Origin: an uncultured Ignavibacteria bacterium
Lineage (GTDB): Bacteria; Zixibacteria; MSB-5A5; CAIYYT01
Assembly (NCBI GenBank): GCA_964370935.1
Contig: CAYJKI010000002.1
Coordinates: forward strand, 522,545-586,544
Direction: 5' to 3'
DNA length: 64,000 nucleotides
Part shown: positions 11,218 to 42,625 of the stretch, one piece after another
How positions within the stretch are numbered: position 1 is the stretch's first letter
Layout: each line of letters opens with the position of its first letter
Notes under the pieces: generated by a model
Databases searched by the model: none
What the model was told of the DNA's origin: nothing
The model's input: only the letters and a program-made list of their open reading frames with translations
Translations under genes and position numbers: made by a program

Positions 11218-11220
11218 CGA

Positions 11221-13071: not shown

Positions 13072-13113
13072 AACTCTCGGGCTCCTTGTGATTACTTAGT
13101 CATTGCGCGCTAT

Positions 13114-13137
13114 GGGCGGTATCCGAAAATACCGCCC
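13114..13137. other. Perfect 9-bp stem-loop (GGGCGGTAT-CCGAAA-ATACCGCCC) in the intergenic region between the YHS gene and cusB
   Basis: Read directly from the sequence. No adjacent T-tract on the minus (transcribed) strand, so this is more likely an intra-operon processing or stability hairpin than a terminator. Confidence 0.4.
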
Positions 13138-13155
13138 TTCGAGCGTTACTCTCGG

Positions 13156-13656: not shown

Positions 13657-13672
13657 TTTGTTCCTCCGTAGA

Positions 13673-27318: not shown

Positions 27319-28629
27319 CTACGCCACGGAGAGCGTAACGTCCTTGGTTGGGACGGCAACCAAACGATCACCGTCAAGGCTCGTTAGATCAACCGAGCAG
27401 ATTTGATTCTGTAGATTTCGTTCGGACTTCAAGTGAACCCGCATGTAGTTTTCCGTATACCCGGTCCAATAGTAATCTTCCTGCGTTTCAAATAGCACAT
27501 TGACAGTCGTGCCAAGATGCGCGGAGTAATATGCCCGACGTTTGCGCTCGGAGAGCTCAATTAAATTGCGAGTGCGTGCCTTCTTGACTTGATGTGGTAC
27601 TTTGGGTTTCAGATTCCATGAGGGCGTACCCGGACGATCGGAATAGGTGAACACGTGGAAATAGAAAAAGGGGAGATCTGTCAGAACGTCGCGAGTATTT
27701 TGAAATTCGGCCTCGCCCTCGGTGGGATAACCGACCATGATATCTGTACCGAGCCCTATGTCGGGAATCAATTTGGCGGACCACTCAATGAACTTGGCGA
27801 ACGGTTTGATGGTATGTTTGCGCGACATCGAAGAGAGAATCTTGTCATCTCCGCTTTGCAGTGGCACGTGCAAGTAGTGGCACAACTTAGCCGACGAGGC
27901 CATATAGCGCACCAATTCCGCCCCGATAGTGGTCGGTTCGATTGAACTGATGCGGATGCGCGACAGGCCTTCAATCAGCTCGAGACGCTCGATGACTTTG
28001 AGCAGGTTTTTTCCGTCATTCTTGTAGGTGCCAATGTTAACACCGGTGAGGACGAGTTCGCGGTGTCCGGCAGCGACCAGAGCTTCGGCTTCGCGAATAA
28101 TGTCGTTGAAATTCCGGCTGCGAGCACGGCCTCGGACTGTTGGGATAATGCAGAACGAGCAAAAATAATTGCAGCCATCCTGGATTTTCAGGTTAGCTCG
28201 TGTATTGAACGTGTACAGGCCGCTGGTGTCAATGGTGAATTCTTTCTCGGGCAACTTCGGCGAGTGGATTATTTGCGGCGCGGAGTTCTTATTGAGACCA
28301 TTGAGAAAGTCGCCTACACGCAGCTTGTGTTCATTGCCAATGATCAGATCGACGCCGCGAATGGCGCTGATGGCATCGATGCCGTTTTGCGCGTAACAGC
28401 CGACGACTGCAACGAAGGTCGTAGGATTGACACGCAGCGCTGCCCGCACCGCCTGTCGGCATTTGGAATCGGCTTGTTCGGTAACAGTGCAGGTGTTAAT
28501 AACCGTCACATCTGCAGGCTCGCCGAATTCGACGATATCGAATCCGCGGGCAGCCAGACTGTTGGCAATAATCGCGGTCTCGGCCTGATTGAGCCGACAA
28601 CCGAGTGTATGCAGCGAAGCCTTGGGCAA
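27319..28629 (-). CDS. mtaB: MiaB-family radical-SAM methylthiotransferase (MtaB-like tRNA t6A37 methylthiotransferase)
   Basis: UPF0004 domain (LHTLGCRLNQAE). Radical SAM CNYFCSFCIIP. C-terminal TRAM domain. The track ORF extends to 28815, but the homologous region begins about 28629 (TTG) with ...KASLHTLGC. Confidence 0.8.
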   Translation of the reverse strand: MPKASLHTLGCRLNQAETAIIANSLAARGFDIVEFGEPADVTVINTCTVTEQADSKCRQAVRAALRVNPTTFVAVVGCYAQNGIDAISAIRGVDLIIGNEHKLRVGDFLNGLNKNSAPQIIHSPKLPEKEFTIDTSGLYTFNTRANLKIQDGCNYFCSFCIIPTVRGRARSRNFNDIIREAEALVAAGHRELVLTGVNIGTYKNDGKNLLKVIERLELIEGLSRIRISSIEPTTIGAELVRYMASSAKLCHYLHVPLQSGDDKILSSMSRKHTIKPFAKFIEWSAKLIPDIGLGTDIMVGYPTEGEAEFQNTRDVLTDLPFFYFHVFTYSDRPGTPSWNLKPKVPHQVKKARTRNLIELSERKRRAYYSAHLGTTVNVLFETQEDYYWTGYTENYMRVHLKSERNLQNQICSVDLTSLDGDRLVAVPTKDVTLSVA

Positions 28630-28736
28630 GTTCCTGCTCCAGAAATGATCCGTTTTGACGCCGAATTGCCGGCGCCGCTGACAGGGAGCAGAATATAGAC
28701 TCGAGCGAGGAATGTCAAGCGGGAGACAGGCTGAAC

Positions 28737-29042
28737 TTATGTCCTGTGAGGTTTGAAGGCAAACTCGCGGATACTCATCGACTCGGGCACCGGATAGACT
28801 CCAGCGCCGGCGCAAAGCGGGCAGGGGCTCTTGTCGGACTGGCGAATTTCGATCATGCCGGATCCTTTACAGGCGTAACAGTCCTTTCCGGAAGCATCCT
28901 GCCCCTTGCCAAAGCAGTACATGCAGACGTGGGCATGATTCGGTGTCAAGCAGCGGTTGTCAACCCAGCCACGCCCGAGGCATTCCGGACAGGTTTTCGG
29001 CGGCCCTTCACTTGACGGTGGTAGGTGCTTCTCGGTTGACAT
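28737..29042 (-). CDS. Small DnaJ-type zinc-finger protein with four CxxCxGxG repeats and no J domain
   Basis: CPECLGRG, CMYCFGKG, CYACKGSG and CPLCAGAG are the four DnaJ central-domain repeats. The ORF overlaps the 3' end of the hydrogenase maturation protease gene. Confidence 0.5.
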   Translation of the reverse strand: MSTEKHLPPSSEGPPKTCPECLGRGWVDNRCLTPNHAHVCMYCFGKGQDASGKDCYACKGSGMIEIRQSDKSPCPLCAGAGVYPVPESMSIREFAFKPHRT

Positions 29043-29523
29043 AAATTTCCTTTCCAGTATGCAATTCAAGCCATTGATTGATACTCACCAGCGCCGGTTC
29101 GACAGCGGACCTCACCTGTCCCGTCATAGATTCATTCAGAGTAGTCACATCAGCGACTTCGACAGCTAACACATCAATATGTTCCGGCATTTGATATCCG
29201 AGCCGGCGCCCCAACTCCAAGGCGGTCGGGAGACTCATCTGATGGCTGGTGGTGAGATTTCGCGATGGTGTCAGAGTCCCCATGGGGAAGAAGTGCAGAG
29301 TACCGGGTGGTACTCCACCGGTCACTATGCTATCAATAAGAAGGACTTTGTCTCTCCCGTTGAGCAAATCCAGAAGGCCGAATCCGGCAACCGGAGCGAA
29401 AATCACTTCGACATGCTCGCAATCCCGCTGCCTTGTGTTCAGTATTCCGGCGATCGTCGGGCCGAACGCGTCATCCGACAAGACTTCGTTGCCGAGACAA
29501 AGTATCAAGAATGGCTTCAACAT
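29008..29523 (-). CDS. [NiFe]-hydrogenase maturation endopeptidase (HycI/HoxW family)
   Basis: MLKPFLILCLGNEVLSDDAFGPTIAGIL matches the N-terminal signature of hydrogenase maturation proteases. The track ORF extends to 29625. The start was chosen at the M preceding LKPFLILCLGN. Confidence 0.75.
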   Translation of the reverse strand: MLKPFLILCLGNEVLSDDAFGPTIAGILNTRQRDCEHVEVIFAPVAGFGLLDLLNGRDKVLLIDSIVTGGVPPGTLHFFPMGTLTPSRNLTTSHQMSLPTALELGRRLGYQMPEHIDVLAVEVADVTTLNESMTGQVRSAVEPALVSINQWLELHTGKEIYVNREAPTTVK

Positions 29524-31001
29524 TGCCTTTTGACGACCTCGACAACTTCTCCGCTTTCCGCAGAATGAATGACAATTTCGAGCGGCATTTCGCCGGGAAG
29601 CGAATGAGTAGCGCAACCAAAACACGGATCGTACGCACGGAACGCCATCTCGATTCGATTGAGAATGCCGTCGGTGATTGTCGTGCCTTTCTTAATCAAC
29701 CCTTCAGCGGCGCGTTTGATCGACATCGTGATCGGCGCGTTGTTGTTAGTCGTACCGACAATGAGATTTGCCTCGGTGACGATTCCGTTCTGATCGGTTT
29801 TGTAGTGATGCGTCAAGGTTCCGCGCGGCGCCTCGACAATGCCGACACCTTCTCCGACAATGCCAGTCGGTGGTTCGAGGATATGATCGGAAGTGATCTC
29901 GTCATCCTTGGCCTGCTCGAGCGTGGCCTCGCAGGCGAACATCAACTCAACCACACGCGCCCAGTGTGTTGCCAGCGTGGAATTGACCGGTGTCTTGCCG
30001 GTTCGATCTCCGGTGAGCGTTTCGAAATAGCGTTCGTACTCGGCGTGCGCAAGCGGCGTCGCCATACCGTCGGCTACGTTGAGCCTTGCCAGAGGGGTCG
30101 CTTTGTAAACGCCGGAGTCCATACCATCGACGAAACCTTTCCAGCCGACTTTTTTGAGATAAGGATACTTGAGATATGAATAGGGTTCGACGCGCTCTTC
30201 AACATACTGAAGATAATCCTTCGGTTCGTACTTGGCGTGTTCCGTACCATCAGGAGCTGTTACTCGCACTTTGCCGTCATAGAAGGTGACGTGGTTGTTG
30301 GCATCGACCAATCCCATATTATAGGTCTGATGGGCGTAGGAATCGGAGAGAATCATCTCCAGATAGGCTTTATTCGCAAGCACGATATCATTCAATACCT
30401 GAATGGTGAACTTGGCGAATTCGACCATGTCTTCGCCGATCTTGATGATCTCCTGCTGCTCTTCCTTGGTCACGCGCTTGCTCATTCCGCCCGGTAATGC
30501 AGTCACGGGGTGAACTTTCTTCCCACCGATGATCTCGATCACACGTTGACCGCGGGCGCGTTGTGCAATGACCTTCTTGCCGGCATCTAGTCCGACCTTG
30601 GCGATTACGCCGAGAATGTTGCGTTCGGCTTTGGGAGCATCGGGACCGCAAACGAAGTCTGGTCCACCGAGGGCATAGAAGTGAGTTGTGTGGTCACCGG
30701 CATAGAACGCGTTGTAGACTAACTCGCGCAATTTGCGCGCTGCCGACGGAATAGTAACACCATACACAGCATCGGCGGCTTTGGCAGACGCCATGTGATG
30801 CGCGTCGGGACACACGCCGCAGATACGGGTGGTAATGCGCGCCAATTCTTCTACCGGGCGTCCCTGGCAGAATTTTTCGAAGCCGCGCAATTCGGGTACC
30901 TGAAAGTAACAGTTGGCTAATTCACCATCGTCGTTGATGAATAAGTGAATCTTGCCGTGCCCTTCAAGGCGCGTAATCGGATCTATGACAATGCTCTTCA
31001 T
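29517..31001 (-). CDS. mvhA: [NiFe]-hydrogenase large subunit, group 3 (MvhA-like)
   Basis: N-terminal RLEGHG...RICGVC and C-terminal DPCFGCATH Ni-Fe ligand motifs. The size (494 aa) and the MvhD/MvhG neighbours indicate group 3. Confidence 0.9.
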   Translation of the reverse strand: MKSIVIDPITRLEGHGKIHLFINDDGELANCYFQVPELRGFEKFCQGRPVEELARITTRICGVCPDAHHMASAKAADAVYGVTIPSAARKLRELVYNAFYAGDHTTHFYALGGPDFVCGPDAPKAERNILGVIAKVGLDAGKKVIAQRARGQRVIEIIGGKKVHPVTALPGGMSKRVTKEEQQEIIKIGEDMVEFAKFTIQVLNDIVLANKAYLEMILSDSYAHQTYNMGLVDANNHVTFYDGKVRVTAPDGTEHAKYEPKDYLQYVEERVEPYSYLKYPYLKKVGWKGFVDGMDSGVYKATPLARLNVADGMATPLAHAEYERYFETLTGDRTGKTPVNSTLATHWARVVELMFACEATLEQAKDDEITSDHILEPPTGIVGEGVGIVEAPRGTLTHHYKTDQNGIVTEANLIVGTTNNNAPITMSIKRAAEGLIKKGTTITDGILNRIEMAFRAYDPCFGCATHSLPGEMPLEIVIHSAESGEVVEVVKRQC

Positions 31002-31969
31002 ACTTGCACCCTCCGAAGCAGAGAACCGGCCATGCTAAAGCGATAGAATGTTCCAAGTGGATCGGGAATGGTGTTGATGATCTGTTCAATCTCCTCTGGA
31101 TCGGTGGAATCGATCACGCTGGCCAATGCCGAGACCATTTTGGCTCCCTGGTCTTTGATGTTTGACGGGAGTCCATAGCAGCCACGGCACGGCATTCCAG
31201 CCTTAACGCATTTGGCTCCGCACCCGGAACGCGTCGCCGGCCCGAGGCAGACGATGCCCTGCTCCATGAGACAGAGATTCGGATCAGTGACCTTGGCAAA
31301 CGGCCTGGAGAAGGCTTTAATCTTTTTGATATTGCGTTCGCGCGGGCACTCGTCACAACAGCTCTTATCGGTTGCTCCAAGAACGGTTCCCTTGGGAGGC
31401 AGCGGCTTGTTGTTCTGGAGGATGTCGATAACGGCCATAACTGCATTCACGATTTGATCTGACTGGGGCGGGCAGCCGGGAATGTAATAATCAACCTCAA
31501 CTACCTGGTCTAGTGAGCGAACCGTATTCCAGAATTTCGGAATTGTGATGGTTCCTTCTGGAACTTGAACTTCCGGCTGGGGCTCGACACTGCCGCCATT
31601 AGCGAGAGAAGGCGACTTATGATAAACGTAATCGAGAATCGAATCTTTGTTGAAGAAGTTAGCCAACGCTGGAATGCACCCTTCGCCGGCACAACTGCCA
31701 AACGCTACCAGCACCACTGATTTCTGGCGCAGTAGTTCGGCGAGCTCATAATTCTCGCTTGTCCGGATCGCCCCGTTAAACAGTGTTAGAGTAATTGACT
31801 TGTCATCCATTGCGCGGACATCGTCGTACTTGATATCCATCGCGCAGGGCCAGAAGACGAGATCAAAGAAATCTACCACGGCGAGAATCTTTTCCTCGAT
31901 ATCGAGAATCGAAATATCACAGCCGCCGCAGGAGGAAGCCCAATATATCGCAAGTTTCGGTTTAGACAT
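30998..31969 (-). CDS. mvhG: [NiFe]-hydrogenase small subunit, group 3 (MvhG-like)
   Basis: MSKPKLAIYWASSCGGCDISILD (proximal cluster), GSCAGEGCIP, and distal CCDECPRE/CLGPATRSGCGAKC motifs. Confidence 0.85.
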   Translation of the reverse strand: MSKPKLAIYWASSCGGCDISILDIEEKILAVVDFFDLVFWPCAMDIKYDDVRAMDDKSITLTLFNGAIRTSENYELAELLRQKSVVLVAFGSCAGEGCIPALANFFNKDSILDYVYHKSPSLANGGSVEPQPEVQVPEGTITIPKFWNTVRSLDQVVEVDYYIPGCPPQSDQIVNAVMAVIDILQNNKPLPPKGTVLGATDKSCCDECPRERNIKKIKAFSRPFAKVTDPNLCLMEQGIVCLGPATRSGCGAKCVKAGMPCRGCYGLPSNIKDQGAKMVSALASVIDSTDPEEIEQIINTIPDPLGTFYRFSMAGSLLRRVQV

Positions 31970-32411
31970 GTTGATGCACCTCCTCGGCATTGGGGTCGAA
32001 ATCGTAGTCGTGCAATTTCAAAGGTCCCAAGGCGCGAATCTGTTCGGTGAACTCGGTGATGACCTCCTGGAAACGGCCGCCTTCGGAAGCCGAAACCCAT
32101 TCGAGGCGCATGCGGTTGCGATCGATTCCCAATTGTTGAAGTAACAATTGCGTCAGGGGCATTCGGCGCATGCACTTGTAGTTCCCTTCGATGTAATGAC
32201 AATCGCCGGGATGACAGCCGCAAACCAACACGCCATCGGCGCCGCGCCGGAAGGCATCGAGGATAAACGCCGGATCGACGCGCCCGGAACACATCACACG
32301 GATGCTGGTCACATTGGGCGGATAGTGCATGCGTGCAGTACCGGCGAGGTCGGCGCCGGTATAACTACACCAGTTGCAGAGGAAGCCGACAATTCTCGGT
32401 TCAAAACTCAT
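31962..32411 (-). CDS. mvhD: MvhD-like hydrogenase iron-sulfur subunit (Hdr-Mvh electron-transfer adaptor)
   Basis: IVGFLCNWCSYTGADLAG...CSGRVDPAFILDAFRRGADGVLVCGCHPGDCHY is the MvhD/FlxD signature. Confidence 0.85.
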   Translation of the reverse strand: MSFEPRIVGFLCNWCSYTGADLAGTARMHYPPNVTSIRVMCSGRVDPAFILDAFRRGADGVLVCGCHPGDCHYIEGNYKCMRRMPLTQLLLQQLGIDRNRMRLEWVSASEGGRFQEVITEFTEQIRALGPLKLHDYDFDPNAEEVHQHV

Positions 32412-34168
32412 GACAAAATCCCCTCAATCTGCGCATAGATTTGTTCGTCAGTGAAGTGGCGGCCCTTGATCGCACCCGAAGGACAAGCCGCGACGCAGGT
32501 GCCGCAAGCCTTACACAGTGCGGAATTGACGTGGCTGATCTTCTTTTCGGGATCAAAGTCGATCGCATGATATGGACACATGTCATTACAGATTTTGCAT
32601 CCGGAGCAAAGCTCGTCCTGGACCTCGGCGTAGGTTGCATCCATCAGGACTTCGCGTTGGCACAAGAGCCTCATTACCTGTGCGGCAGCCGCCGAACCTT
32701 GTGCGACAGAGTCAGGAATGTCCTTTGCACCCTGACAGACTCCGGCGAGGAAGATTCCCTCGGTTGACGTTGATACCGGCGCCAGCTTGGGATGCGATTC
32801 GATAAACCAGCCATCGGCACCGACGGAGATATTGAAACGGCGGGCAACCTCCTTGGCATCAACTCGTGCTTCAAGAGCGGTGCAGAGGACAATCATGTCG
32901 ACTGGCACTTCGCGATACTTGCCGATCATTGTGTCTTCGCAGCGGACAATCAGGGCGCCTTCGGCTTTTTGTGATTGACTGGCCGGGGCAACTTCGGCGC
33001 CTTTACCGCGGATGACATTGCCGCCTTCATCGAGAATTCGCTGGTAGAATTCTTCGTAGCCCTTTCCGAACGAGCGCATGTCGATGTAGAACTGATAGAC
33101 ATCAGCCTTGGTTTTCTCCATGATCAAGTGCGAGAACTTGAGGGCGTACATGCAGCAAACGCGGCTGCAGTATTTGTGGTGGTTTTCGTCGCGACTACCG
33201 ATGCAGTGGATGATTGCGATCCGGCGCGGTTCTTCGCCATTCTCCAAACAGATCTTTCCACCGGTCGGGCCGGCGGCATTGTTCATTTTCTCAAACTCGA
33301 TTGAGGAAACAACGTTGGGATAGTGGCCATAACCATACTGCTTCATTGGCGTGGGATCGAAATCGTCAAAGCCGGTTGCCAGCACAACGGCGCCGACTTC
33401 AATTTCCTCGAAATCTGCGCGATCGCCGTAGTCGATACAGCCCTTGGGGCACACCTTCTCGCAAATCATACACCCGCCAGTCTTGTAGTGTATGCAATTC
33501 TCGCGCACGATATAGGGTACGTTGGGGACTGCCTGTCGGAAAGGCAATGTAATTGCGGAGTTGGGTCCCAAGTTCAGTTCGCGGTGATTGATGACCCGCT
33601 CTTCAATATCCTCCATTTTAATATGGCCGGTCGGGCAGTATTTGGCGCAGGCGCCGCAGAGAATGCAGGCCTCGGAATCCAGGTTGAACGGAGTTGAGAC
33701 ATCGCGTTCCCGGCCACGATTGACAAAGGTCAGAGCGTGAGCACCGACGACCTCGTCGCAGATACGCACACAGAGTCCGCAGAGAATGCAAGTGTAGGTT
33801 CCATGTCCCCAGCGAGGCTCCTTGACACCGAACTTCGCTGCATAATGCTCCAGCAAGGGGACCGGGGCGCAGTTGGCCATCAACATTTCAAGGTTTGTGC
33901 GGCGTGCATTAACCACTCGCGGAGTTTCGGTGAAAATTTCCAGACCGTCCCAAGCCGGGTAATTGCAGGCCGTTACGATCTTGCTCCAGCCCTTGTTGTT
34001 GCGAGCCTCCACGACACAGATTCGGCAAGCAGCATACGGGCTCATAAATGGGTAGTAGCAGAGAGTCGGGATCTCGATTCCCAACGACTGTGCAGCGCCC
34101 AGGACGTACGAGCCCTCTTCGACCTCGATCGCTTGACCGTCTATTTTAATCTTAACAGTTGCCATCAT
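32408..34168 (-). CDS. Fusion protein: a NuoG/HoxU-like N-terminal module (2Fe-2S plus two [4Fe-4S] motifs) joined to the C-terminal half of HdrA (remainder of the inserted ferredoxin, FAD-domain second half with CSRVCC, C-terminal 2x[4Fe-4S] ferredoxin)
   Basis: N-terminus KIKIDGQAIEVEEGSYVLGAAQSLGIEIPTLCYYP...CRIC (2Fe-2S), CILCGLCVRICDE, CILCGACAKYCP. This is followed by LNLGPNSAITLPFRQAVP, IAIIHCIGSRDENHHKYCSRVCCMYALK, and CSGCKICNDMCP...CKACGTCVAACP, all collinear with methanogen HdrA from about residue 235 onward. Confidence 0.8.
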   Translation of the reverse strand: MMATVKIKIDGQAIEVEEGSYVLGAAQSLGIEIPTLCYYPFMSPYAACRICVVEARNNKGWSKIVTACNYPAWDGLEIFTETPRVVNARRTNLEMLMANCAPVPLLEHYAAKFGVKEPRWGHGTYTCILCGLCVRICDEVVGAHALTFVNRGRERDVSTPFNLDSEACILCGACAKYCPTGHIKMEDIEERVINHRELNLGPNSAITLPFRQAVPNVPYIVRENCIHYKTGGCMICEKVCPKGCIDYGDRADFEEIEVGAVVLATGFDDFDPTPMKQYGYGHYPNVVSSIEFEKMNNAAGPTGGKICLENGEEPRRIAIIHCIGSRDENHHKYCSRVCCMYALKFSHLIMEKTKADVYQFYIDMRSFGKGYEEFYQRILDEGGNVIRGKGAEVAPASQSQKAEGALIVRCEDTMIGKYREVPVDMIVLCTALEARVDAKEVARRFNISVGADGWFIESHPKLAPVSTSTEGIFLAGVCQGAKDIPDSVAQGSAAAAQVMRLLCQREVLMDATYAEVQDELCSGCKICNDMCPYHAIDFDPEKKISHVNSALCKACGTCVAACPSGAIKGRHFTDEQIYAQIEGILS

Positions 34169-34174
34169 AGTCTC

Positions 34175-36193
34175 CTATGCCACGGTCGCCGGCTGTTTTG
34201 CGGTTTCCTTGGGCTGCCAAAGTTCGCGGGCTTTCAGTTGGATCTTGTCGCCTTCGCCGCGCTTGACTCGCTTGATCGAGTTGTAGCGACAGATCTGGTA
34301 ACAAGCTCCACATTGAATGCACTTGTCCTGGATGATCATGTGCAGGCGTTTGGGTTCGCCGACGATAGCGTTAGTCGGGCAGGGTTTGACACAGGCGTGA
34401 CAGCCAGTGCAGGTATTGTCGATGGCGTGCGCCACAAGTTCCTTGCAGACACCGGCTGGGCAGCGTTTGTCACGAACGTGCGCGATGTATTCCTGGCGGA
34501 AGTAACGAATCGTGGAAAGCACCGGATTCGGAGCTGAACCGCCGAGCTGACACAAGCTGGTGTCGATAATAACCTGCGACAGCTCCTCGAGGTACTCGAT
34601 GTCCTCCATCGTGCCTTTGCCTTCGCAGATTTTGTTAAGAATGTTCAGCATCACGACAATGCCTTCACGACAGGGTACGCACTTGCCGCACGACTCCTCC
34701 TGGAGGAATTTCAGGAAGTACCGTGCGACATCGACCATGCAGGAATCTTCATCCATCACGATCATGCCACCCGATCCCATCATCGAACCGGCTTTGGTGA
34801 GTTCATCGAAGTCCACAGGCAAATCGAGCAGGCTGACCGGTTCATCTTCCTCGCGAATGTCGCCATGAGCAACCATACTGGCATGAACGGAGGTTTCGGA
34901 AGTCTCGACAATCAAGGTACCGCCTGACGGGCCACCGGTTTGCACGGCTTTGAAGCGTTTCTTGTTTGGGACTCCGCCGCCGATGTCATAGAGAATCTCG
35001 CGCAGGGTAATCCCCATTGGGACCTCGACCAATCCGGTGTTGTTGATTTTGCCGGTGAGAGCAAATACCTTGGTACCTTTGGAGTTGGCGGTTCCAATCC
35101 CGGCAAAATACTCGGCGCCTTTTTCAATGATGACCGGAATGTTAGCCCACGTTTCAACATTGTTCAGATTCGAGGGCTTTTCCCAGAGACCGGCTTCCAC
35201 CGTGTGGATATATTTGGCTCGCGGTTCACCGACCTTCCCTTCAAGCGAGGCCATCAAGGCAGTTGATTCGCCGCAGACAAATGCGCCACCGCCGCGGGAA
35301 ATCTCAATCTCGAAGTTGAATCCGGTCCCGAGAATATTCTGCCCGATTAGACCATACTCGCGCGCCTGATTCATCGCAATTGTCAGGTTCTTGACCGCCA
35401 ATGGATATTCGTTGCGAACATAAACGAATCCATCATTACTGCCGATGGCGAAAGCGCCGATAACCATCCCTTCAATCACCATGTGGGGATTGCCTTCGAG
35501 CAGAGAACGATCCATGAAGGCTCCGGGGTCGCCCTCGTCAGCGTTACAGATGACGTATTTCGGTTCGCCTTTGGCATTGCGGCATGATTCCCATTTTCTG
35601 CCGGCTGGATATCCACCACCGCCTCGACCGCGCAATCCGGACCGTTTGACCTCATCGATTATTTGCGTCGGCATCATTTGAGTCAGCGCTTTCACCATCG
35701 CCTGATAACCGCCGAGGAGGATGTAGTCGTTGATCGAGGTCGGGTCCATATAACCGTTCCTGCCGAAAATCAGACGCATCTGCTTTTTGTAAAACGGTAT
35801 GTCTTTTTCCAGTTTAATGACCTGCTGCGATTGCGGATCGCGATAGAGCAGTTTATTCACCAGATGACCGCCCTTGATTGTCTGTTCCCAGATCAACTTG
35901 GCGTCCGCAGGGCGGACTTTCTGATAGAAGATTCCTTGTGGCTGGACGACAACCAGCGGACCACGTTCACAGAATCCGTGACAACCTGTGGTCTTGATTT
36001 CAACTTCATTCTCCAGATGGTCATTAACGATTTCTTCCCGGAAGACCTTGGTAACCGCTTCGCAGCCACAGGCCAGGCAGCCGGTTCCGGCACAAACGGT
36101 CAGCACCGTTTTATTGGCGTTGCGATTGTTCTTGATTTGCTCGCGCAACTTGGCCAAATCCTGTGGCGACTTTATTCTGTTTTCTTTCATCAC
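34175..36193 (-). CDS. NuoF/HoxF/HndC-like NAD(P)H-binding flavoprotein (51-kDa type) with an N-terminal thioredoxin-like [2Fe-2S] domain and C-terminal 2x[4Fe-4S]
   Basis: GRGGGGYPAGRKWE (FMN/NADH site), ESCGKCVPCREG (N3 cluster), C-terminal CTGCHACVKPCP and CIQCGACYQICR, N-terminal CAGTGCLACGC...CHGFCERGP. Confidence 0.85.
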   Translation of the reverse strand: MMKENRIKSPQDLAKLREQIKNNRNANKTVLTVCAGTGCLACGCEAVTKVFREEIVNDHLENEVEIKTTGCHGFCERGPLVVVQPQGIFYQKVRPADAKLIWEQTIKGGHLVNKLLYRDPQSQQVIKLEKDIPFYKKQMRLIFGRNGYMDPTSINDYILLGGYQAMVKALTQMMPTQIIDEVKRSGLRGRGGGGYPAGRKWESCRNAKGEPKYVICNADEGDPGAFMDRSLLEGNPHMVIEGMVIGAFAIGSNDGFVYVRNEYPLAVKNLTIAMNQAREYGLIGQNILGTGFNFEIEISRGGGAFVCGESTALMASLEGKVGEPRAKYIHTVEAGLWEKPSNLNNVETWANIPVIIEKGAEYFAGIGTANSKGTKVFALTGKINNTGLVEVPMGITLREILYDIGGGVPNKKRFKAVQTGGPSGGTLIVETSETSVHASMVAHGDIREEDEPVSLLDLPVDFDELTKAGSMMGSGGMIVMDEDSCMVDVARYFLKFLQEESCGKCVPCREGIVVMLNILNKICEGKGTMEDIEYLEELSQVIIDTSLCQLGGSAPNPVLSTIRYFRQEYIAHVRDKRCPAGVCKELVAHAIDNTCTGCHACVKPCPTNAIVGEPKRLHMIIQDKCIQCGACYQICRYNSIKRVKRGEGDKIQLKARELWQPKETAKQPATVA

Positions 36194-36711
36194 TTCGCCT
36201 CCTCGGATTTGTGAACCTTGCCCGCGCGCACATCGTTAAGCATCGTTTCCGTCTTGGTGACTGTCATGTTGCCATAGTAAACCTCATTGGCGGTCACGAG
36301 CGGTCCGAGCGCGCACGCACCGAGGCAGTTTACGGTTTCGAGGCTGATCTCACCGTCCGGCGTCGTTTCTCCGGGCTTGATCTTGAGGTCGCGCTCCAGT
36401 TTGTCAACGATTACGGTCGCTTGCCGAACGTGGCAGGCGGTGCCGGTACAAACACAGATGTGATTCTTACCTTTCGGTTTCAGGCTGAAGGTGCGATAGA
36501 ACGTCGCTACACCGTATATCTGCGCCAGCGGCAGTTTCATCGTTTTGGAGACAGCGCGCATGGCTGACTCCGGCAGGTAGCGATAGTGCTTCTGAATGTC
36601 CTGGAGGATCATGATGAGCGCCGATGCCTTGGCGCCGTACTCGGCCACAATTTGGTCGATGGCTTCTTGAACATCATACTCTTCTTGCGGAGTCGCGGGT
36701 AATGTCGTCAT
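36190..36711 (-). CDS. NuoE/HoxE-like thioredoxin-fold [2Fe-2S] subunit (24-kDa type)
   Basis: CVCTGTACHVRQ...CLGACALGP is the NuoE cluster motif. The gene has 4-nt overlaps with both neighbours. Confidence 0.85.
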   Translation of the reverse strand: MTTLPATPQEEYDVQEAIDQIVAEYGAKASALIMILQDIQKHYRYLPESAMRAVSKTMKLPLAQIYGVATFYRTFSLKPKGKNHICVCTGTACHVRQATVIVDKLERDLKIKPGETTPDGEISLETVNCLGACALGPLVTANEVYYGNMTVTKTETMLNDVRAGKVHKSEEAK

Positions 36712-37673
36712 GATTGTTTCACCTCCGCAGGCAGCAGATCTTTTTCAGGCATGGGTTGAGCCGCTGTGAGAACTGTTAAATCGTGCTTTGGCCCCATTCG
36801 CCATTTGTCCTGAACGTCGAGAAGCCGCCCTTCGCGGTAGACACGATCTCCAAGCATCATGCGACGACGGGTCGGTGTCGGCACGCTGGGACAGGCTTCG
36901 TAGCAGGCGCCGCAGCTGTTGCACTTTGTGGTATCCACGTAACGGGGTTTCTTCTTCAGTTTGACCGTGAAATTCCCCAAATACCCCGAGACTTCCTCAA
37001 CTTCTGTCCAAGTCAAAAGACGAATGTTGGGATGTTTCCCGACCGCAACCATTTTCGGAGTTAGAATACAAGCGGCGCAGTCGAGCGTTGGAAACGTCTT
37101 GTCAAATTGCGCCATGTGACCGCCAATCGTGGTTTCCTTTTCGACAAGGATAACCTTGAAGCCGGCATCGGCAATTTGCAGAGCTGCTTCAATTCCGGCA
37201 ATACCGCCGCCGACAATTAGAACCTGCTGTTTGATTGGGACGCGGCGCATGTCGAGCGGTTCATGAAGCCTGACTCTGGCAACCGCCGCTCGCACCAGTG
37301 AGACCGCCTTGGCCGTCGCAGCTTTGGGATCAAGAGTCACCCAGCTTACCTGCTCGCGAATATTCGCCATTTCAAAAAGATAGCGATTGAGTTGAGCGCG
37401 TTCGCACGCGTTGCGAAATGTCGGTTCATGCATCAGCGGGCTGCAGGCAGCGACCACAACGCGATTGAGTTTAGATTCGCGAATGTCCTTCTGAATCAGT
37501 TCCTGTCCCGGTTCCGAACACATGAATTTGTATTGTCTGGCGACCACCACATTAGGAAGCGCGGCGGCGACCTCGACGACCTTACTTACATCGACCATTT
37601 TGGCGATGTTGTTTCCGCAATGACAGACATAGACGCCGATGCGGATTTCAGAGCCATTTTGCGACTGGTTCAT
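36708..37673 (-). CDS. hdrA: HdrA N-terminal fragment (N-terminal Cys-cluster domain, first half of the FAD-binding domain, first [4Fe-4S] motif of the inserted ferredoxin) ending in a ~50-aa unrelated tail
   Basis: IGVYVCHCGNNIAKMVDV...RVVVAACSPLMHEPTFRNAC...YLFEMANIREQ. VLIVGGGIAGIEAALQIADAGFKVILVEKETTIGGHMAQFDKTFPTLDCAACIL. KPRYVDTTKCNSCGACYEACP. Its stop overlaps the nuoE-like start. Confidence 0.8.
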   Translation of the reverse strand: MNQSQNGSEIRIGVYVCHCGNNIAKMVDVSKVVEVAAALPNVVVARQYKFMCSEPGQELIQKDIRESKLNRVVVAACSPLMHEPTFRNACERAQLNRYLFEMANIREQVSWVTLDPKAATAKAVSLVRAAVARVRLHEPLDMRRVPIKQQVLIVGGGIAGIEAALQIADAGFKVILVEKETTIGGHMAQFDKTFPTLDCAACILTPKMVAVGKHPNIRLLTWTEVEEVSGYLGNFTVKLKKKPRYVDTTKCNSCGACYEACPSVPTPTRRRMMLGDRVYREGRLLDVQDKWRMGPKHDLTVLTAAQPMPEKDLLPAEVKQS

Positions 37674-38554
37674 ACTGCCACCACGCCTTTCATCGCCATA
37701 AGCTTGCTGGGTTCGATGAGCAGTTTATCGAGTCCAAGCTCCTCGGGCGACAGTCCAAGTGCAATTCCGACCAAATGCGTGAAGTATATGACGGGTATGT
37801 TAAAGTCAGTCGAGTACTGCGAATTGACTTTGCCCTGGAAGCCTTCAAGGTTCACGTGGCATAGAGGGCAGGCAGTGGCGATCATCTCACCACCGTTCTC
37901 TGCCGCGGCCTGCAGAAGTTCATGACAGAGCTTCAGCGCAATCTGCTCATCGGTGGTCATTAGCATTCCACCGCAGCAGCGTACTTTGGGCGGGTAGGGA
38001 ACCGACTCGGCGCCGAGGGCGCGGATCAAATTGTCCATCGTTTGCGGATCATCCTTGTCATCGAAGTAGCCGACTGGCCGGACAATCTGACAACCGTAGT
38101 ATGGAGCGACCTTGAGTCCGGTCAGTGGCTGCGTAACCTTTGTCTTGAGCACGTCGATTCCGACATCATTGACGATGATGTCAAGCGGATGACGAACGTT
38201 GACTGGCTTGGTATACGACATCCCCGCAGCGGCGAGGGCTTCATTGATCTTCTTGCCTTCTTTGGGATCCCAGGCGATGTGTCGATTCGTCTTGCGAAGT
38301 ATCGTGTAGCAACTACTGCACGGGGCGCAGATTTCGAGTCCCATCTCCTGCGCCAACGCCAGATTTCGCGCACTGATCGAGTAGCCGACGATCTTCTTGG
38401 CGGACATGTACATTGTGGCGCCGCAACAGTTCCAATCCTCGATTTCACGGAGCCCGATTCCAAGCGATTTGAACACAGCGCGCGTCGACTTGTCGTAAGG
38501 GCTGGCCGTATGCTCAAGGCTGCAGCCGGGGTAGTAAGCAAATTCTAGCATCAC
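37670..38554 (-). CDS. hdrB: Heterodisulfide-reductase subunit B-like protein (two CCG domains)
   Basis: WNCCGA... and RCCGGMLM CCG-domain motifs, plus conserved Cys spacing of HdrB/HdrD. Confidence 0.85.
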   Translation of the reverse strand: MMLEFAYYPGCSLEHTASPYDKSTRAVFKSLGIGLREIEDWNCCGATMYMSAKKIVGYSISARNLALAQEMGLEICAPCSSCYTILRKTNRHIAWDPKEGKKINEALAAAGMSYTKPVNVRHPLDIIVNDVGIDVLKTKVTQPLTGLKVAPYYGCQIVRPVGYFDDKDDPQTMDNLIRALGAESVPYPPKVRCCGGMLMTTDEQIALKLCHELLQAAAENGGEMIATACPLCHVNLEGFQGKVNSQYSTDFNIPVIYFTHLVGIALGLSPEELGLDKLLIEPSKLMAMKGVVAV

Positions 38555-39138
38555 TGTTCTCCAAACTCGTTAGCTTTTTTGATAATGGCCTGGATTTGAT
38601 TGACGCGTTTAATGCGTTTCGGGAGTAGTCCCATTCTGCCCCGCCGGATCATTGCCATCCCGTAACCGGCTGTCGTGAATAATTTCACAATGTGTGAGCG
38701 CATAAAGTACTTTATACCGAGACCGAGTTCATAATTGCGCCCGTACCTGTAGACATTATTCATGAATGTCGAGGAGAGGCTATGGACCGGAAAGTTGGCT
38801 GGGTAGATCTTTCTGTGCATCGCAATTCGCTTCAGCGCATACATGGTATCGGTGACCTTGATTCCAGCAGGACACCTGACCGTGCAAGCGTAGCATGAAG
38901 CGCAGATCCAGATCGTCTTGCTGCGAAGGATGTCCTCCAGGCGGCCAGCTCTGAACATCGCGATGGTTTGGCGGGGCGTGATGTCCATAAACTGCGAAAC
39001 CGGGCAGGTTCCCGTGCAGGTTCCGCACTGAAGGCACTTCTTGATCTTGTGTCCGTCGGGAAAAGAGTCGATTTGCTCCCAAAAGGCGGCATGCAATTCG
39101 GCCTCTGTGGGCGAAGTGGTCTTGATTGCTTCAGTCAT
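38551..39138 (-). CDS. hdrC: Heterodisulfide-reductase subunit C-like 2x[4Fe-4S] ferredoxin
   Basis: CLQCGTCTGTCP and CASCYACTVRCP. First gene of the operon. Confidence 0.85.
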   Translation of the reverse strand: MTEAIKTTSPTEAELHAAFWEQIDSFPDGHKIKKCLQCGTCTGTCPVSQFMDITPRQTIAMFRAGRLEDILRSKTIWICASCYACTVRCPAGIKVTDTMYALKRIAMHRKIYPANFPVHSLSSTFMNNVYRYGRNYELGLGIKYFMRSHIVKLFTTAGYGMAMIRRGRMGLLPKRIKRVNQIQAIIKKANEFGEQ

Positions 39139-39392
39139 AAGACCTCAAAGAGATATAAGTACTCGAATTCGGAAGGAAACACCGACTTAGAATACCAGTC
39201 GCGTCAACAGGATGGCATCGTGACGCAAATCCCATTGTCGATGTCGCTATCTATGATGGAAATAATCAGCTTTTCGGGCAAGTGTCAAGAGAAATATTTC
39301 ACAAAGTCATACTGTAATATGAAACAAAGAATAGCTTCGTTGTGGTGGAATCCGCCCTTTAAAAACCAATCAAGTTGGGCCGCTTTTAATGG

Positions 39393-39983
39393 TTAACGGC
39401 CGATCAGATGGAGAAATTCCGCTCTTGTAGCCGGGTCTTCATGCAATTCGCCAAGCATCGCTGATGTCACCATTACTGAATTCTGCTTTTCTACGCCACG
39501 CATCATCATGCAAAGGTGTTGTGCTTCTATGACAACTCCAACTCCGATAGCTCCGGTGTGGATTTGAATCGTATTAGCGATCTGACGTGTTAGATTCTCC
39601 TGAATCTGAAGCCGGCGGCCAAAGACATCAACAACTCTTGCGACTTTTGAGAGGCCAAGCACCTTTCCATCGGGTATATACCCGACGTGACACTTCCCGA
39701 AGAATGGCAATAGATGGTGCTCACACATTGAGTAGAGCTCGATGTTTTTTACGACCACAAGTTCCTTCGTATCTGACTCAAATAACGCATCGTTAATGAT
39801 TGCGCCGATGTCCTCGCTATATCCTTTCATTAGGAATTCGAATGCCTTGGCGGCGCGGGCGGGAGTTCTTCGAAGACCCTCACGGTTGGGATCTTCACCA
39901 ATGTGGGTTATGAGATTGTGATAGAGTTCTTCAAGCCGCAAAGTCATTTTGTGCTCTCCTGAAAGTCGTGCGCCAATGTTCAA
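39393..39983 (-). CDS. folE: GTP cyclohydrolase I
   Basis: [19 protein letters not shown]...[10 protein letters not shown]...[14 protein letters not shown] motifs of FolE. Confidence 0.85.
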
Positions 39984-40786: not shown

Positions 40787-42625
40787 TTACTCGGCCAACA
40801 TCACAGAGATTCCCCAATATTGAGGATTCCTTGGTTTTGTGTCGTTCCAGTTTCCGAATGAATGAGATCCATCAGATACATAGTGAAGTCGATACGATCC
40901 GGCATCAAGGAAGATTTGAGTGTCAGCAATTCGGTTCTTATCCGCACCACCGGCAGCAGTGGTCTTGCGGTAGGTCATCTCCCAAACGACATCTCGAGTT
41001 TGGACATCCTCGATCCATCCGTAATCATACATTTCATTCCCGGATCCTTCACCCATGGCAATAATATGTACGCGAGTCGGCTTGCTGATGGTGAATGAAG
41101 TCGACTCCTCGGCGTCATCGCCAACACGGACTATTCTGGCAAGTACGTCCTTCGATTCCGCCTCTTCCTGCAATTCGGCGATAAGAGAGCGGTCGAATGA
41201 ATTGTTAACGGCGAAGAGGGTCACGCCGTAGTTTTTCTGATCGTATGGCGCCCCGGAATTCCATGCTCCATAAGCATGCGAGTCATCGGTAACATAGCCG
41301 AGAACATAATCGCCCTTTGGCAGGGTAACGACTTCATCAGCCAACCGATTCTTTTTCGCTCCGCCGGCCGGTTCGGTGTTGCGTTCCTGCATTAGCCAGA
41401 ATGGTCTCGAGTCACCAAGTCGTTCAATCCAGGCATAGTCGGCGAAATCACCGCTGCCGGTGCTATATTCGCCGAGAGCATAAACACGTACTTCGCAATC
41501 CTGCTTTACACGGAAAGGTTTGACTTCCATAAAATCATCGCCGGCACGAACAATGGATAGAAGTGCCAACTGCGACGAACTTTCGCGGAAGGTGGAAACA
41601 GAGGCTAAATCGGTCTTGGACAATGCAGAAACTCGAACGCCGTAAGCTTCGGGATTATAAGGTGGCGGGCAATTCCAATCATCATAGCTGTGCGAATCAT
41701 CAGTGACGTAATAAAGCAAGTAGTTGCCTTTGTCGAGCTGCAATGTGCGTCGCGCCATTTTGTTTTTCTCGCCGCCACCCGCCCAGCGCAGATGCTCGTC
41801 GGCCATTGACCATTCACGTTTGCGCGTATCGGCATTGATGATCCAGCCGTAATCGGCGTAAGAATCACTCCAGTCGGGGATTTCGCCAATGGCTTGAATT
41901 TCCACTTCCATTGGTTTGGCGAGTGAAAAGCCCACTGAAGTATATTGTTCATGATCCGGATGGAGGATTTCAGCGATGACCCGATCAGACGTGTAGGTGC
42001 AAGTGGCACTGCGAATGTCGCCGTTGTCCCCAGTGATCTCCAGCCGGTATTCGGCGAGCAGCTCCTCCATTTCGGCTGACCAATCGGAATCAACTGTGAC
42101 ATTCCAATTGTTGTCTTTAAGCTGCTTCTCCAATTCGGCCAGATCTTTGGTCTTGTTTCCCAACTCCTTTTTAACTTCCTCCAAAGCGGCTTTGAGCTGC
42201 TCCCAGTCGAGACTGAAGTTCACGTTGTTCCAGAAGTTTACCGGTCCCGCAAAGAAGTACACTTGATATTGGCCGGGCTCGAGTTCCAGATTCCGATCAT
42301 ATTCGCGAAGTCTATCGTCCTTGTTTGAAGGGTCGGTGTTCGTGTCATCCATAATCCAGACCGGCTCAAGCCCGCTGGCAGGAATGATCCAGGCATACGC
42401 GGCCATTTCGCGATCATTACCGGATGCGGCACCGACGGCGTTGATATGTATGGAGGAAGGTTTGTTGACTTCAAAAGCTTTGCAGTAGAGCTCACCTTTG
42501 CGGAAATCGCGCACCTTAACAATCTGGACATTCTCGGCTACAGCGGTTACCGCTAAGACAATTAGAACCAGCGCAACAGAGGCAGTGCCAACGGTGCCAA
42601 TTCGATTTTCCGGTTTAACTCTCAA
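40787..42625 (-). CDS. Secreted/membrane-anchored protein composed of four tandem ~140-aa repeats of an unknown domain
   Basis: N-terminal TM/signal segment. Four copies of the pattern [AD]Y[AG]WI...GG.KN+.A+..L..G.Y.L.YV.DDSH.Y..WN...PY......YGV (AYAWIIP.., DYGWIINAD.., DYAWIERLG.., DYGWIEDVQ..). Confidence 0.5.
   Translation of the reverse strand: MRVKPENRIGTVGTASVALVLIVLAVTAVAENVQIVKVRDFRKGELYCKAFEVNKPSSIHINAVGAASGNDREMAAYAWIIPASGLEPVWIMDDTNTDPSNKDDRLREYDRNLELEPGQYQVYFFAGPVNFWNNVNFSLDWEQLKAALEEVKKELGNKTKDLAELEKQLKDNNWNVTVDSDWSAEMEELLAEYRLEITGDNGDIRSATCTYTSDRVIAEILHPDHEQYTSVGFSLAKPMEVEIQAIGEIPDWSDSYADYGWIINADTRKREWSMADEHLRWAGGGEKNKMARRTLQLDKGNYLLYYVTDDSHSYDDWNCPPPYNPEAYGVRVSALSKTDLASVSTFRESSSQLALLSIVRAGDDFMEVKPFRVKQDCEVRVYALGEYSTGSGDFADYAWIERLGDSRPFWLMQERNTEPAGGAKKNRLADEVVTLPKGDYVLGYVTDDSHAYGAWNSGAPYDQKNYGVTLFAVNNSFDRSLIAELQEEAESKDVLARIVRVGDDAEESTSFTISKPTRVHIIAMGEGSGNEMYDYGWIEDVQTRDVVWEMTYRKTTAAGGADKNRIADTQIFLDAGSYRLHYVSDGSHSFGNWNDTKPRNPQYWGISVMLAE

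Follow-up and report, generated by a model that had tools for sequence, protein, structure and literature searches.

A hydrogenase-heterodisulfide reductase operon with a HydBC-type module inserted in a split HdrA in uncultured bacteria

Flavin-based electron bifurcation (FBEB) is the route by which strict anaerobes obtain low-potential ferredoxin at almost no energetic cost. Two described systems can be set beside the operon studied here, which lies on the minus strand at 39138..29008 of a 64,000-nucleotide window (the whole stretch of DNA that was analysed) from contig CAYJKI010000002.1 of an uncultured Ignavibacteria bacterium. One is the MvhAGD-HdrABC complex of methanogens (PDB 5ODC). The other, and the closest among characterised systems, is the class II benzoyl-CoA reductase (BCRII) of Geobacter metallireducens, Bam[(BC)2DEFGHI]2, which is called 'Bam-Bfu' by Schut et al. 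2022 and is the only Bfu enzyme with an HdrA module in that survey (PMC9304861). BCRII is the only characterised complex in which a Bfu-type module (BamGHI) is combined with an HdrA-type BamE, an MvhD-like BamF and an HdrBC-like BamD, and according to the preprint on its structure it is the first complex reported to hold two FBEB modules (bioRxiv 10.64898/2026.04.10.717634).

The operon in the window contains all six subunit types of MvhAGD-HdrABC with their cofactor motifs, as well as the same mvhD-mvhG-mvhA and hdrC-hdrB-hdrA gene orders. It differs from the methanogen system in that HdrA is split, with a NuoE/NuoF/NuoG-N module in its inserted ferredoxin domain, and in that it belongs to uncultured bacterial phyla. 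Ten close-packed open reading frames (ORFs), each assigned by Pfam and NCBIfam, follow one another in the order hdrC, hdrB, hdrA-N, nuoE-like, nuoF-like, a NuoG-N::hdrA-C fusion, mvhD, mvhG, mvhA and the maturation protease gene. A preliminary description of this DNA, made from the sequence alone, had named these ten contiguous genes and placed the diaphorase-like ones physically inside hdrA. The ORF list and the two family databases bore out its coordinates and identities, profile hidden Markov models upheld every gene assignment, and alignments of both HdrA fragments agreed with the insertion. The same description had read the ten genes as one tightly packed unit; the packing held, and the unit is longer than ten genes, as an eleventh conserved gene for a small zinc-finger protein follows the protease gene.

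The HdrA fragments were located by alignment to known structures. Residues 8-263 of HdrA-N align to residues 10-266 of HdrA in 8rvu (M. marburgensis) with an E value of 8e-104, and also to 5odc_A 3-270. This part comprises an N-terminal FeS domain, the GGGIAG sequence that opens the thioredoxin-reductase fold binding flavin adenine dinucleotide (FAD), the Cys pair C199/C202 and, from the inserted ferredoxin domain, the first CxxCxxCxxxCP motif (C251-C261), where the similarity to HdrA ends. The tail of about 60 amino acids behind it is not HdrA-like; it is kept only within the split-HdrA family, with its first ~25 residues conserved. The rest of HdrA is found in the fusion protein, residues 193-584 of which correspond to positions 258-640 of NCBIfam HdrA2, whereas phmmer against the PDB aligned residues 158-585 to HdrA 244-653, up to the C-terminus (E 7e-110). 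In that alignment the CILCGACAKYCP motif of the fusion protein (C168-C178) sits on the first motif of HdrA. The split point is thus inside the inserted ferredoxin domain, right after its first Cys motif. This domain is the low-potential exit both in Mvh-Hdr (PMC9012536) and in BCRII (bioRxiv 10.64898/2026.04.10.717634). Between them, the two polypeptides carry the full set of HdrA cofactor motifs, including those of the C-terminal ferredoxin domain, and the operon has no single-chain HdrA. A Lys residue at the N5 atom of FAD is a hallmark of bifurcating Hdr flavins (bioRxiv 10.64898/2026.04.10.717634), and Lys344 of the fusion protein, in a CCMYAxK motif, is invariant in 63 homologues and by residue count corresponds to K409 of 5odc_A.

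The N-terminal part of the fusion protein belongs to another family. Residues 3-99 and ~121-198 are HoxU/NuoG/HydA-N-like, and residues 5-199 match residues 5-200 of the BfuA subunit of Wor-Bfu (9mqx_A, E 3e-31). Within residues 1-~200 there are ligands for one [2Fe-2S] cluster (C37, C48, C51, C68) and two CxxCxxCxxxC motifs (C127-C137 and C168-C178); a motif search of this part found no His-ligated cluster motif. Judged by its motifs, it is the short three-cluster form of BfuA (Type 2, which lacks two of the five A clusters). An AlphaFold2 (AF2) monomer of the fusion protein had a predicted local distance difference test score (pLDDT) of 70.8 and a predicted template modelling score (pTM) of 0.41, with residues 1-160 confident. 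When searched with Foldseek, ~214 N-terminal columns of the model superposed on HydA N-termini at ~4 Å, and the remainder superposed on HdrA. In the model, motifs A and B belong to the BfuA-like fold, and because they do, motif C of the inserted ferredoxin domain (C225-C240 of the fusion protein) is left there without a partner in cis. Its partner is probably motif 1 on HdrA-N, in which case the ferredoxin domain would be assembled in trans.

The extra Cys motifs of NuoF show to which family the inserted module is related. The best PDB matches of NuoF by phmmer were 7t2r_B (NiFe-HydB of Acetomicrobium mobile, E 2e-230), 9mqx_B (E 5e-225) and 8a6t_B (E 5e-222), and its Cys motifs align with those of all three over the full length. 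The protein has an N-terminal thioredoxin-like [2Fe-2S] domain (C34, C39, C71, C75), a core for flavin mononucleotide (FMN) and NAD(H), an SLBB domain, a [4Fe-4S] site (C502, C505, C508, C548), a Cys pair at the linker site (C578, C583) and a C-terminal 2x[4Fe-4S] ferredoxin-like domain (C595-C605, C625-C635). The Bfu family is defined by the extra BfuB sites B2-B5, which the R. eutropha NiFe-hydrogenase, Nqo and the R. capsulatus Fdh do not have (PMC9304861). All extra sites are found here in the BfuB-like protein, along with a BfuC with one [2Fe-2S] cluster and a short BfuA. Since NuoF has every extra-cluster motif of HydB/BfuB, the inserted module appears to be of the bifurcating HydB/BfuB type and is expected to bind both NAD(H) and ferredoxin. 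In this respect the preliminary description, which had thought of a HoxEFU- or HndABC-like diaphorase and of NAD(H) taking the place of ferredoxin, or supplementing it, as bifurcation partner, has to be revised. A Hox-type identity of NuoEF was rejected on three features of NuoF: its [2Fe-2S] domain at the N-terminus, the two Cys residues of the linker site and its 2x[4Fe-4S] domain at the C-terminus. An additional insert of ~25 amino acids (ETSETSVHASMVAHGDIREEDEPV) was observed at residues ~430-455 of NuoF, after the SLBB region and before the [4Fe-4S] helix bundle; none of the structurally characterised HydB homologues has it.

The three module proteins can be compared with those of bifurcating hydrogenases. 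NuoF is HydB-like, NuoE is HydC-like and the N-terminal part of the fusion protein is HydA-N-like with respect to both NiFe-HydABCSL of A. mobile (7T2R) and FeFe-HydABC (8A6T, 7P5H). In HydABC-type enzymes the hydrogenase is wired directly to BfuA, whereas here HdrABC and MvhD stand between them, and BfuA is cut to three clusters and fused to HdrA-C. Hox (HoxEFUYH, group 3d) and FlxABCD-HdrABC resemble the operon in joining an NAD(H) module to a [NiFe] hydrogenase and to HdrABC, respectively. In Flx, electrons from NADH pass by the MvhD-like FlxD to the input port of HdrA, and Flx is not known to contain a NuoF-type flavoprotein. Neither Hox nor Flx is known to have a split HdrA. The Hox-type BfuB homologues lack the extra clusters seen here (PMC9304861). 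The operon also departs from group 3d in its gene arrangement, as the HoxU-like part is fused to HdrA-C, and MvhD and HdrABC intervene before the hydrogenase.

By its motifs and gene linkage the hydrogenase is a candidate member of group 3c. MvhA carries the L1 motif RICGVCPDAH at residue 59 and the L2 motif DPCFGCATH at residue 458, followed by a C-terminal extension of 28 amino acids; the protease gene is directly downstream, and mvhD and hdrABC are linked. The best PDB match of MvhA was 5odc_F (MvhA, E 1e-115), with A. mobile HydL (7t2r_D, E 2e-108) second and HoxH (5xf9_D, E 7e-92) behind. In bits, the best family match, VhuA, scores 396, below its equivalog cut-off of 800, and MvhA scores 390, with A. 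mobile HydL close behind at 366 and HoxH at 312. HdrB keeps both CCG motifs complete, as seen in a motif search and in the two Pfam CCG stretches, and once the HdrA fragments are combined, the cofactor motifs are complete for every MvhAGD-HdrABC subunit. On this evidence from motifs, the input side (MvhA-MvhG-MvhD together with the C-terminal ferredoxin domain) and the HdrC-HdrB side look canonical, and the low-potential exit is the only port that seems to have been re-engineered. The disulfide is unlikely to be CoM-S-S-CoB, the heterodisulfide of coenzymes M and B, because Zixibacteria RBG-1, which has an Mvh/Hdr locus, has no CoM/CoB biosynthesis according to Castelle et al. (PMC3903129).

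To see how far the arrangement extends, one genome per species was scanned, which gave 78 loci, all in metagenome-assembled genomes (MAGs). All ten genes are complete and colinear in 44 of these loci, 39 of which have identical spacing, and most of the others are cut by contig ends. The preliminary description had proposed such a neighbourhood search for hdrA fragments flanking nuoEF, and by its result the architecture is not confined to one genome. By their record titles the MAGs belong to Zixibacteria/Zixiibacteriota, 'Ignavibacteria', KSB1, Calditrichaeota, Eisenbacteria, Krumholzibacteriia, Acidobacteriota and Thermoanaerobaculaceae. The fusion protein forms more than 120 full-length clusters at 90% identity. 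It is ~97% identical in the two nearest MAGs, L001 (titled Zixibacteria) and L002 (titled 'uncultured Ignavibacteria'), which makes the organism label ambiguous. Compared with L002, the ratio of nonsynonymous to synonymous substitution rates (dN/dS) is 0.011-0.10 for all ten genes, with values of 0.02-0.04 for both HdrA fragments, 0.02 for the HdrA-N tail and 0.024 for nuoF. The split of HdrA is real, as it recurs with the same spacing in dozens of independent assemblies and purifying selection on its two parts is strong. A full-length hdrA gene that had been mis-split in the reading of the sequence, a concern of the preliminary description itself, was rejected by the PDB alignments and by this recurrence. 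In another close relative (L071 10850-14015), the matches of the fusion protein and of mvhA are fragmented, and the fusion protein is 50% identical over residues 284-568, which suggests frameshifts or assembly errors in that MAG.

More distant families with a NuoG-N::HdrA-C protein were collected by a search of 1.84 billion representative proteins followed by inspection of the loci. Cassettes of split HdrA and NuoE-NuoF-NuoG without a hydrogenase were found at L081 4858-10941, L083 363-9928, L086 584-7866 and L085 1221-7788. The genes adjoining them are an acyl-CoA dehydrogenase gene with etfBA and an HdrD-like gene, or etfA with hdrCB and a gene for a large CCG protein, or a gene for a GlcD-like FAD oxidase::CCG protein. 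In L081, L083 and L085, HdrA-N and NuoE are joined in one protein of 423-424 amino acids; in L083 the fusion protein is extended by MvhD to 706 amino acids; and in the L086 lineage the domains are permuted, with the N-terminal domain of HdrA moved to the C-terminus. From the fusions in relatives (HdrA-N::NuoE and HdrA-C::MvhD), the NuoG-N::HdrA-C fusion in the window, the conservation of the operon and the dN/dS values, we infer that the Mvh, Hdr and NuoEFG-like parts are one complex.

The position of the insertion was also compared among HdrA proteins with other inserts. An NfnB-like insert separates the same two Cys motifs of the inserted ferredoxin domain in HdrA9-11 of ANME-1 (PMC9012536) and in the HdrL-like HdrA of Desulfobacterota. 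Two cases among the collected loci confirmed this position. In L076-L078 (Desulfobacterota; position confirmed on L076), HdrL-like genes of 1,137 amino acids have the NfnB-like insert between motifs 1 and 2. In L068 (5646-9377), a Zixibacteria MAG with otherwise the same operon, HdrA is unsplit with 1,243 amino acids, and an NfnB/GltD-like domain (Fer4_20 and Pyr_redox_2) comes after motif 1 and before motifs A, B and C; it stands in for NuoE, for NuoF and for the [2Fe-2S] domain, and both of the extra [4Fe-4S] motifs have been retained. The NfnB-type inserts are single in-frame domains, whereas in the window a three-subunit HydBC-type module breaks the gene into two ORFs and, compared with the NfnB type, adds FMN, a ferredoxin-binding domain and nine extra FeS-cluster motifs. 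In four further loci (L055, L057, L059 and L063), the NuoE and NuoF between the HdrA fragments are much more divergent (39-47% and ~57% identity) than in loci whose fusion protein has diverged to a similar level. These loci also have genes for DRTGG, CBS-HATPase, PHP and HATPase proteins and for a separate protein of 129 amino acids between the fragments (4295-8143 in L057), a gene set which we take to resemble the accessory genes of FeFe-hydrogenase HydABC operons. The 129-amino-acid protein has no Pfam match and appears to be the split-off [2Fe-2S] domain, and the comparison suggests that the Bfu set of these loci was replaced or separately acquired. Since the NfnB/GltD-like domain in L068 and the divergent Bfu set in these four loci occupy the same position, the inserted ferredoxin domain behaves, as far as gene content tells, as a plug-in site for pyridine-nucleotide modules.

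The wiring deduced for the operon is different from that of BCRII. In BCRII, Bfu feeds the input port of HdrA, which is the C-terminal ferredoxin domain with BamF, and electrons reach the tungsten enzyme BamBC by way of the inserted ferredoxin domain. In the operon, the [NiFe] hydrogenase is at the input port, Bfu is inside the inserted ferredoxin domain, and BamB/C are absent; no gene of the AOR family (BamB/C type) was found in the operon or within 10 kb on either side. The acceptor side differs as well, as both CCG motifs of HdrB are complete here, whereas the distal cluster of BamD is degenerate and its acceptor is the electron-transferring flavoprotein (ETF). HdrA is a single split unit in the operon and a fused double HdrA in BCRII. 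The two systems agree in BamI, which has one [2Fe-2S] and two [4Fe-4S] clusters like the N-terminal part of the fusion protein.

Because the low-potential exit is the only re-engineered port, we propose a serial arrangement in which H2 is bifurcated at the FAD of HdrA, with one electron going to a disulfide-type acceptor through HdrBC and the other into the Bfu module, which would make NADH and reduced ferredoxin; we give this reading an even chance of being correct. The eleven genes would encode one cytoplasmic complex joining two different electron-bifurcating units. Electrons from H2 would travel by MvhA-MvhG-MvhD to the HdrA flavin, the input route of methanogen Mvh-Hdr, after the two HdrA polypeptides have reassembled into the FAD-binding fold. 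The high-potential electron would go from the flavin by HdrC to the two non-cubane clusters of HdrB and on to a putative disulfide or other sulfur compound. The low-potential electron would leave by the inserted ferredoxin domain, probably assembled in trans from motif 1 of HdrA-N and motif 2 of the fusion protein. It would bypass free ferredoxin and pass through the attached short BfuA part (two [4Fe-4S] and one [2Fe-2S]) into the HydBC/Bfu-type NuoEF core, where the electrons would be split between NAD+ at FMN and ferredoxin at the C-terminal 2x[4Fe-4S] domain of NuoF. The net reaction would be 4 H2 + 2 RSSR + NAD+ + 2 Fd(ox) -> 4 RSH + NADH + 2 Fd(red). The observations behind this scheme are the genes present and their cofactor motifs, the place at which HdrA is split, the conservation of the operon and the fusions in relatives; which way the electrons flow, in what stoichiometry, the assembly of the ferredoxin domain in trans and what the sulfur substrate is are our inferences. 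With textbook potentials assumed for the disulfide (-140 mV), NAD+ (-320 mV) and ferredoxin (-450 mV), the mean acceptor potential was calculated to be about -260 mV, compared with about -295 mV for canonical Mvh-Hdr, and on the same assumed values the H2 threshold would be ~10-fold lower (~1 Pa versus ~10 Pa for Mvh-Hdr).

A bolder form of the proposal, which we regard as unlikely, has serial stacking from HdrA to a HydBC-type module, opposite in order to the benzoyl-CoA reductase, as a second natural class of such complexes. It would include a flavoprotein and a ferredoxin domain each built from two polypeptides, the zinc-finger protein as dithiol/disulfide partner of HdrB, and the cassette as a general adaptor that also serves ETF/acyl-CoA dehydrogenase and FAD-oxidase partners.

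Several observations weigh against the serial arrangement. The direction of electron flow is not readable from sequence, and the HydBC-type module of BCRII is a confurcating input, not an output. At high H2 it would seem a waste to supply very-low-potential electrons to a module for which ~-390 mV is enough. The moderate monomeric AF2 model supports the two-part fold of the fusion protein only, not the ferredoxin domain assembled in trans. In L056 (2622-5317), L058 (9040-11755) and L062, the split HdrA and the NuoG-N fusion are kept with no nuoE or nuoF between the fragments, so the FeS extension can exist without locally encoded NuoEF. No thiol/disulfide candidate (DsrC, TusA or a lipoate-binding protein) recurs in the flanks of related loci, where only NtrC-type regulators, hyp maturation genes (~11-12 loci) and lineage-specific genes were found repeatedly. 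Every member of the operon family is known from a MAG. The main rival takes up the logic of BCRII in reverse: the NuoEF/Bfu module would confurcate NADH and reduced ferredoxin into HdrA by the inserted ferredoxin domain, and from there the electrons would go to HdrBC and, via MvhD, to the hydrogenase. The enzyme would then balance redox pools or evolve H2, or it would use H2 and NADH with ferredoxin as alternative donors for disulfide reduction. Homologous BamGH of BCRII indeed accepts electrons from NADH and reduced ferredoxin for delivery to BamE, which is HdrA-like; HydDB lists the [NiFe] hydrogenases of group 3 as bidirectional (PMC5037454); and some relatives of the cassette adjoin etfAB and acyl-CoA dehydrogenase genes, where flow from a high-potential donor is plausible. 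However, Bfu of BCRII enters by the C-terminal ferredoxin domain and the MvhD-like adaptor, a port that is occupied here by MvhD-MvhG-MvhA, and the inserted ferredoxin domain is an output in both characterised systems. By our estimate, electrons at ~-390 mV together with thiol-derived ones would allow H2 evolution only below ~1 Pa, and NADH and reduced ferredoxin already make H2 directly through HydABC-type enzymes. We therefore consider reverse flow rather improbable.

A simple diaphorase, by which the NuoEFG-like module would couple the low-potential branch of HdrA to NAD(H) only, with NAD+ in place of ferredoxin and no second bifurcation, would fit the matches of the three module proteins to the HoxE and NuoE/NuoF/NuoG family models and the NfnB-like NAD(P)H domain found at the same HdrA site in other lineages. 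On the other hand, NuoF has kept the extra clusters that the non-bifurcating HoxF/Nqo1 lack, under the strong overall constraint on nuoF given above, and the reduction of NAD+ (-320 mV) by electrons of ~-500 mV would dissipate the energy gained by bifurcation; this reading is decidedly unlikely in our judgement. There is very little chance that the operon encodes two separate enzymes, a co-transcribed NuoEF-type enzyme beside a degenerate Mvh-Hdr whose hdrA was split by decay or by an assembly artefact. The two pieces of hdrA and the three loci without nuoEF between them could be taken in this sense, but the recurrence of the split in independent assemblies, the low dN/dS of the fragments and of the tail, the covalent fusion of NuoG-N to HdrA-C and the HdrA-N::NuoE fusions in relatives are contrary to it.

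All the parts of the operon are known, and there is one precedent for stacking HdrA and HydBC; what has not been described is the placing of Bfu at the exit for low-potential electrons, the division of the flavoprotein, the input from a hydrogenase and the wide distribution. The preliminary description had not recognised the architecture among Mvh-Hdr, Flx-Hdr, Hox and Hnd systems. The literature searched, the scope of which did not extend to the HdrA review of Appel et al. 2021, yielded no account of a hydrogenase-Hdr complex whose split HdrA encloses a Bfu module, although there are precedents for parts of it in the HdrA with NfnB insert and in BCRII. An 'MvhADG/HdrABC hydrogenase complex' was noted in Zixibacteria RBG-1, and in the available portions of that paper neither an insertion of NuoEF nor a split HdrA is mentioned (Castelle et al., PMC3903129). 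Clusters of nuoEFG-mvhD-hdrA were listed for Desulfotignum (Poehlein et al., PMC4046663), and the supplement of the Bfu survey has no Hdr, Mvh or Zixibacteria entries (PMC9304861). The operon family points to a second and much more widespread combination of the same two modules as in BCRII, with other wiring and H2 as substrate. The lineages in which it is found, Zixibacteria, KSB1, Calditrichota, Eisenbacteria, Krumholzibacteria and Acidobacteriota, are common inhabitants of sediments and soils of which hardly any members, if any, are in culture. If the serial arrangement is true, trace H2 and a sulfur oxidant would yield NADH and reduced ferredoxin in one machine of sediment bacteria, and models of the H2 threshold and of NADH and ferredoxin supply in these organisms would change. 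It would also be a natural case of a flavoprotein split by an inserted multi-subunit module, and what bacterial HdrB homologues reduce, a question of long standing, would become directly testable on a defined eleven-gene unit. The annotation that such loci now receive is 'HdrA', '4Fe-4S dicluster protein' or simply 'MvhADG/HdrABC', and metabolic reconstructions therefore miss the NAD(H) link.

The coordinates of the eleven genes are listed in Table 1. The preliminary description had counted most junctions as 4-nt ATGA overlaps. Four are certain; two more are overlaps of 1 or 4 nt, depending on the choice of start codon, one is an 8-nt and one a 7-nt overlap, and a gap of 6-9 nt precedes the fusion gene. 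With the starts of the gene caller, the junctions overlap by 1-8 nt, except for a 9-nt gap at the fusion gene and the 35-nt overlap of the eleventh ORF. The upstream neighbour of hdrC is folE, across an intergenic spacer of 254 nt, and a gene for a MiaB-like radical-SAM protein is the downstream neighbour, ~107 nt past the operon. Scans of positions 28300-39700 for promoters and terminators gave no more sites than shuffled sequence, no sigma-54 consensus was found upstream of hdrC, and matches to it across the window were at chance level. Since none of these scans gave anything above chance, the case for one transcription unit is made by gene packing and synteny only. In the flanks of related loci (e.g., L022 807-2168, L021 14986-16083 and L070 15839-18211) an NtrC-type response regulator gene is located upstream of hdrC in 17 cases, and hypD, hypF, hypE and hypA recur downstream of the operon in ~8-12 loci; in the window neither an NtrC-type regulator gene nor hyp genes adjoin the operon.

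Table 1. Genes of the operon, with positions in the window and the evidence for each assignment
Gene or product	Position	Strand	Length, motifs and matches
hdrC	38551..39138	-	195 aa; two CxxCxxCxxxC motifs (C35-C45, C79-C89); Pfam Fer4_8/Fer4_17; NCBIfam CoB_CoM_SS_C E 8e-22
hdrB	37670..38554	-	start ATG 38551 (gene caller) or GTG 38554; Pfam CCG E 5e-27, two stretches; NCBIfam CoB_CoM_SS_B E 3.5e-63
hdrA-N	36708..37673	-	321 aa; NCBIfam HdrA2 positions 1-256
nuoE/hydC/bfuC-like	36190..36711	-	173 aa; [2Fe-2S] C88, C93, C129, C133; PF01257 (2Fe-2S_thioredx) E 1.7e-51; NCBIfam HoxE/NuoE
nuoF/hydB/bfuB-like	34175..36190/36193	-	671/672 aa; Pfam Complex1_51K, SLBB, NADH_4Fe-4S; N-terminal 2Fe-2S and C-terminal 2x4Fe-4S domains
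fusion protein NuoG-N::HdrA-C	32408..34165/34168	-	585/586 aa; Pfam, NCBIfam, PDB phmmer
mvhD	31962..32411	-	149 aa, [2Fe-2S] adaptor; Pfam FlpD E 2.5e-56; NCBIfam VhuD and MvhD-like C-terminus of HdrA2
mvhG	30998..31969	-	323 aa, [NiFe]-hydrogenase small subunit; Pfam Oxidored_q6; NCBIfam VhuG E 1e-61; gene-caller start
mvhA	29517..31001	-	494 aa, [NiFe]-hydrogenase large subunit; NCBIfam VhuA E 1e-118
maturation endopeptidase	29008..29523	-	171 aa; start probably ATG 29523; Pfam HycI; NCBIfam TIGR00072 E 6e-28
CxxCxGxG zinc-finger protein	28737..29042	-	101 aa; PF00684 E 3e-9; overlaps protease gene by 35 nt

The eleventh gene, which is absent from the preliminary description, encodes a stand-alone DnaJ-type zinc finger with four CxxCxGxG repeats. 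Its matches to the Cys-rich domain of DnaJ and to anti-TRAP in NCBIfam and the PDB were weak. In 36 related loci, which come from several phyla, the gene is directly 3' of that for the protease, and its dN/dS is 0.05-0.11. The protein may help in maturation. No other product of the operon is a candidate for a dedicated thiol/disulfide partner, a role that is speculative.

Elsewhere in the window, three large ORFs of 612-625 amino acids were observed on the minus strand. Those at 57871-59748 and 59842-61701 had no Pfam match at E <= 1e-6, and for the one at 40787-42625 the annotation precomputed for the matching contig gives no Pfam match. On the minus strand at 7429-14998 lie the genes of an RND efflux system of the heavy-metal type, with a pump of the AcrB/CusA family of 1,262 amino acids, a membrane-fusion protein of 616 amino acids (HMBD, DUF3347) and an outer-membrane factor.

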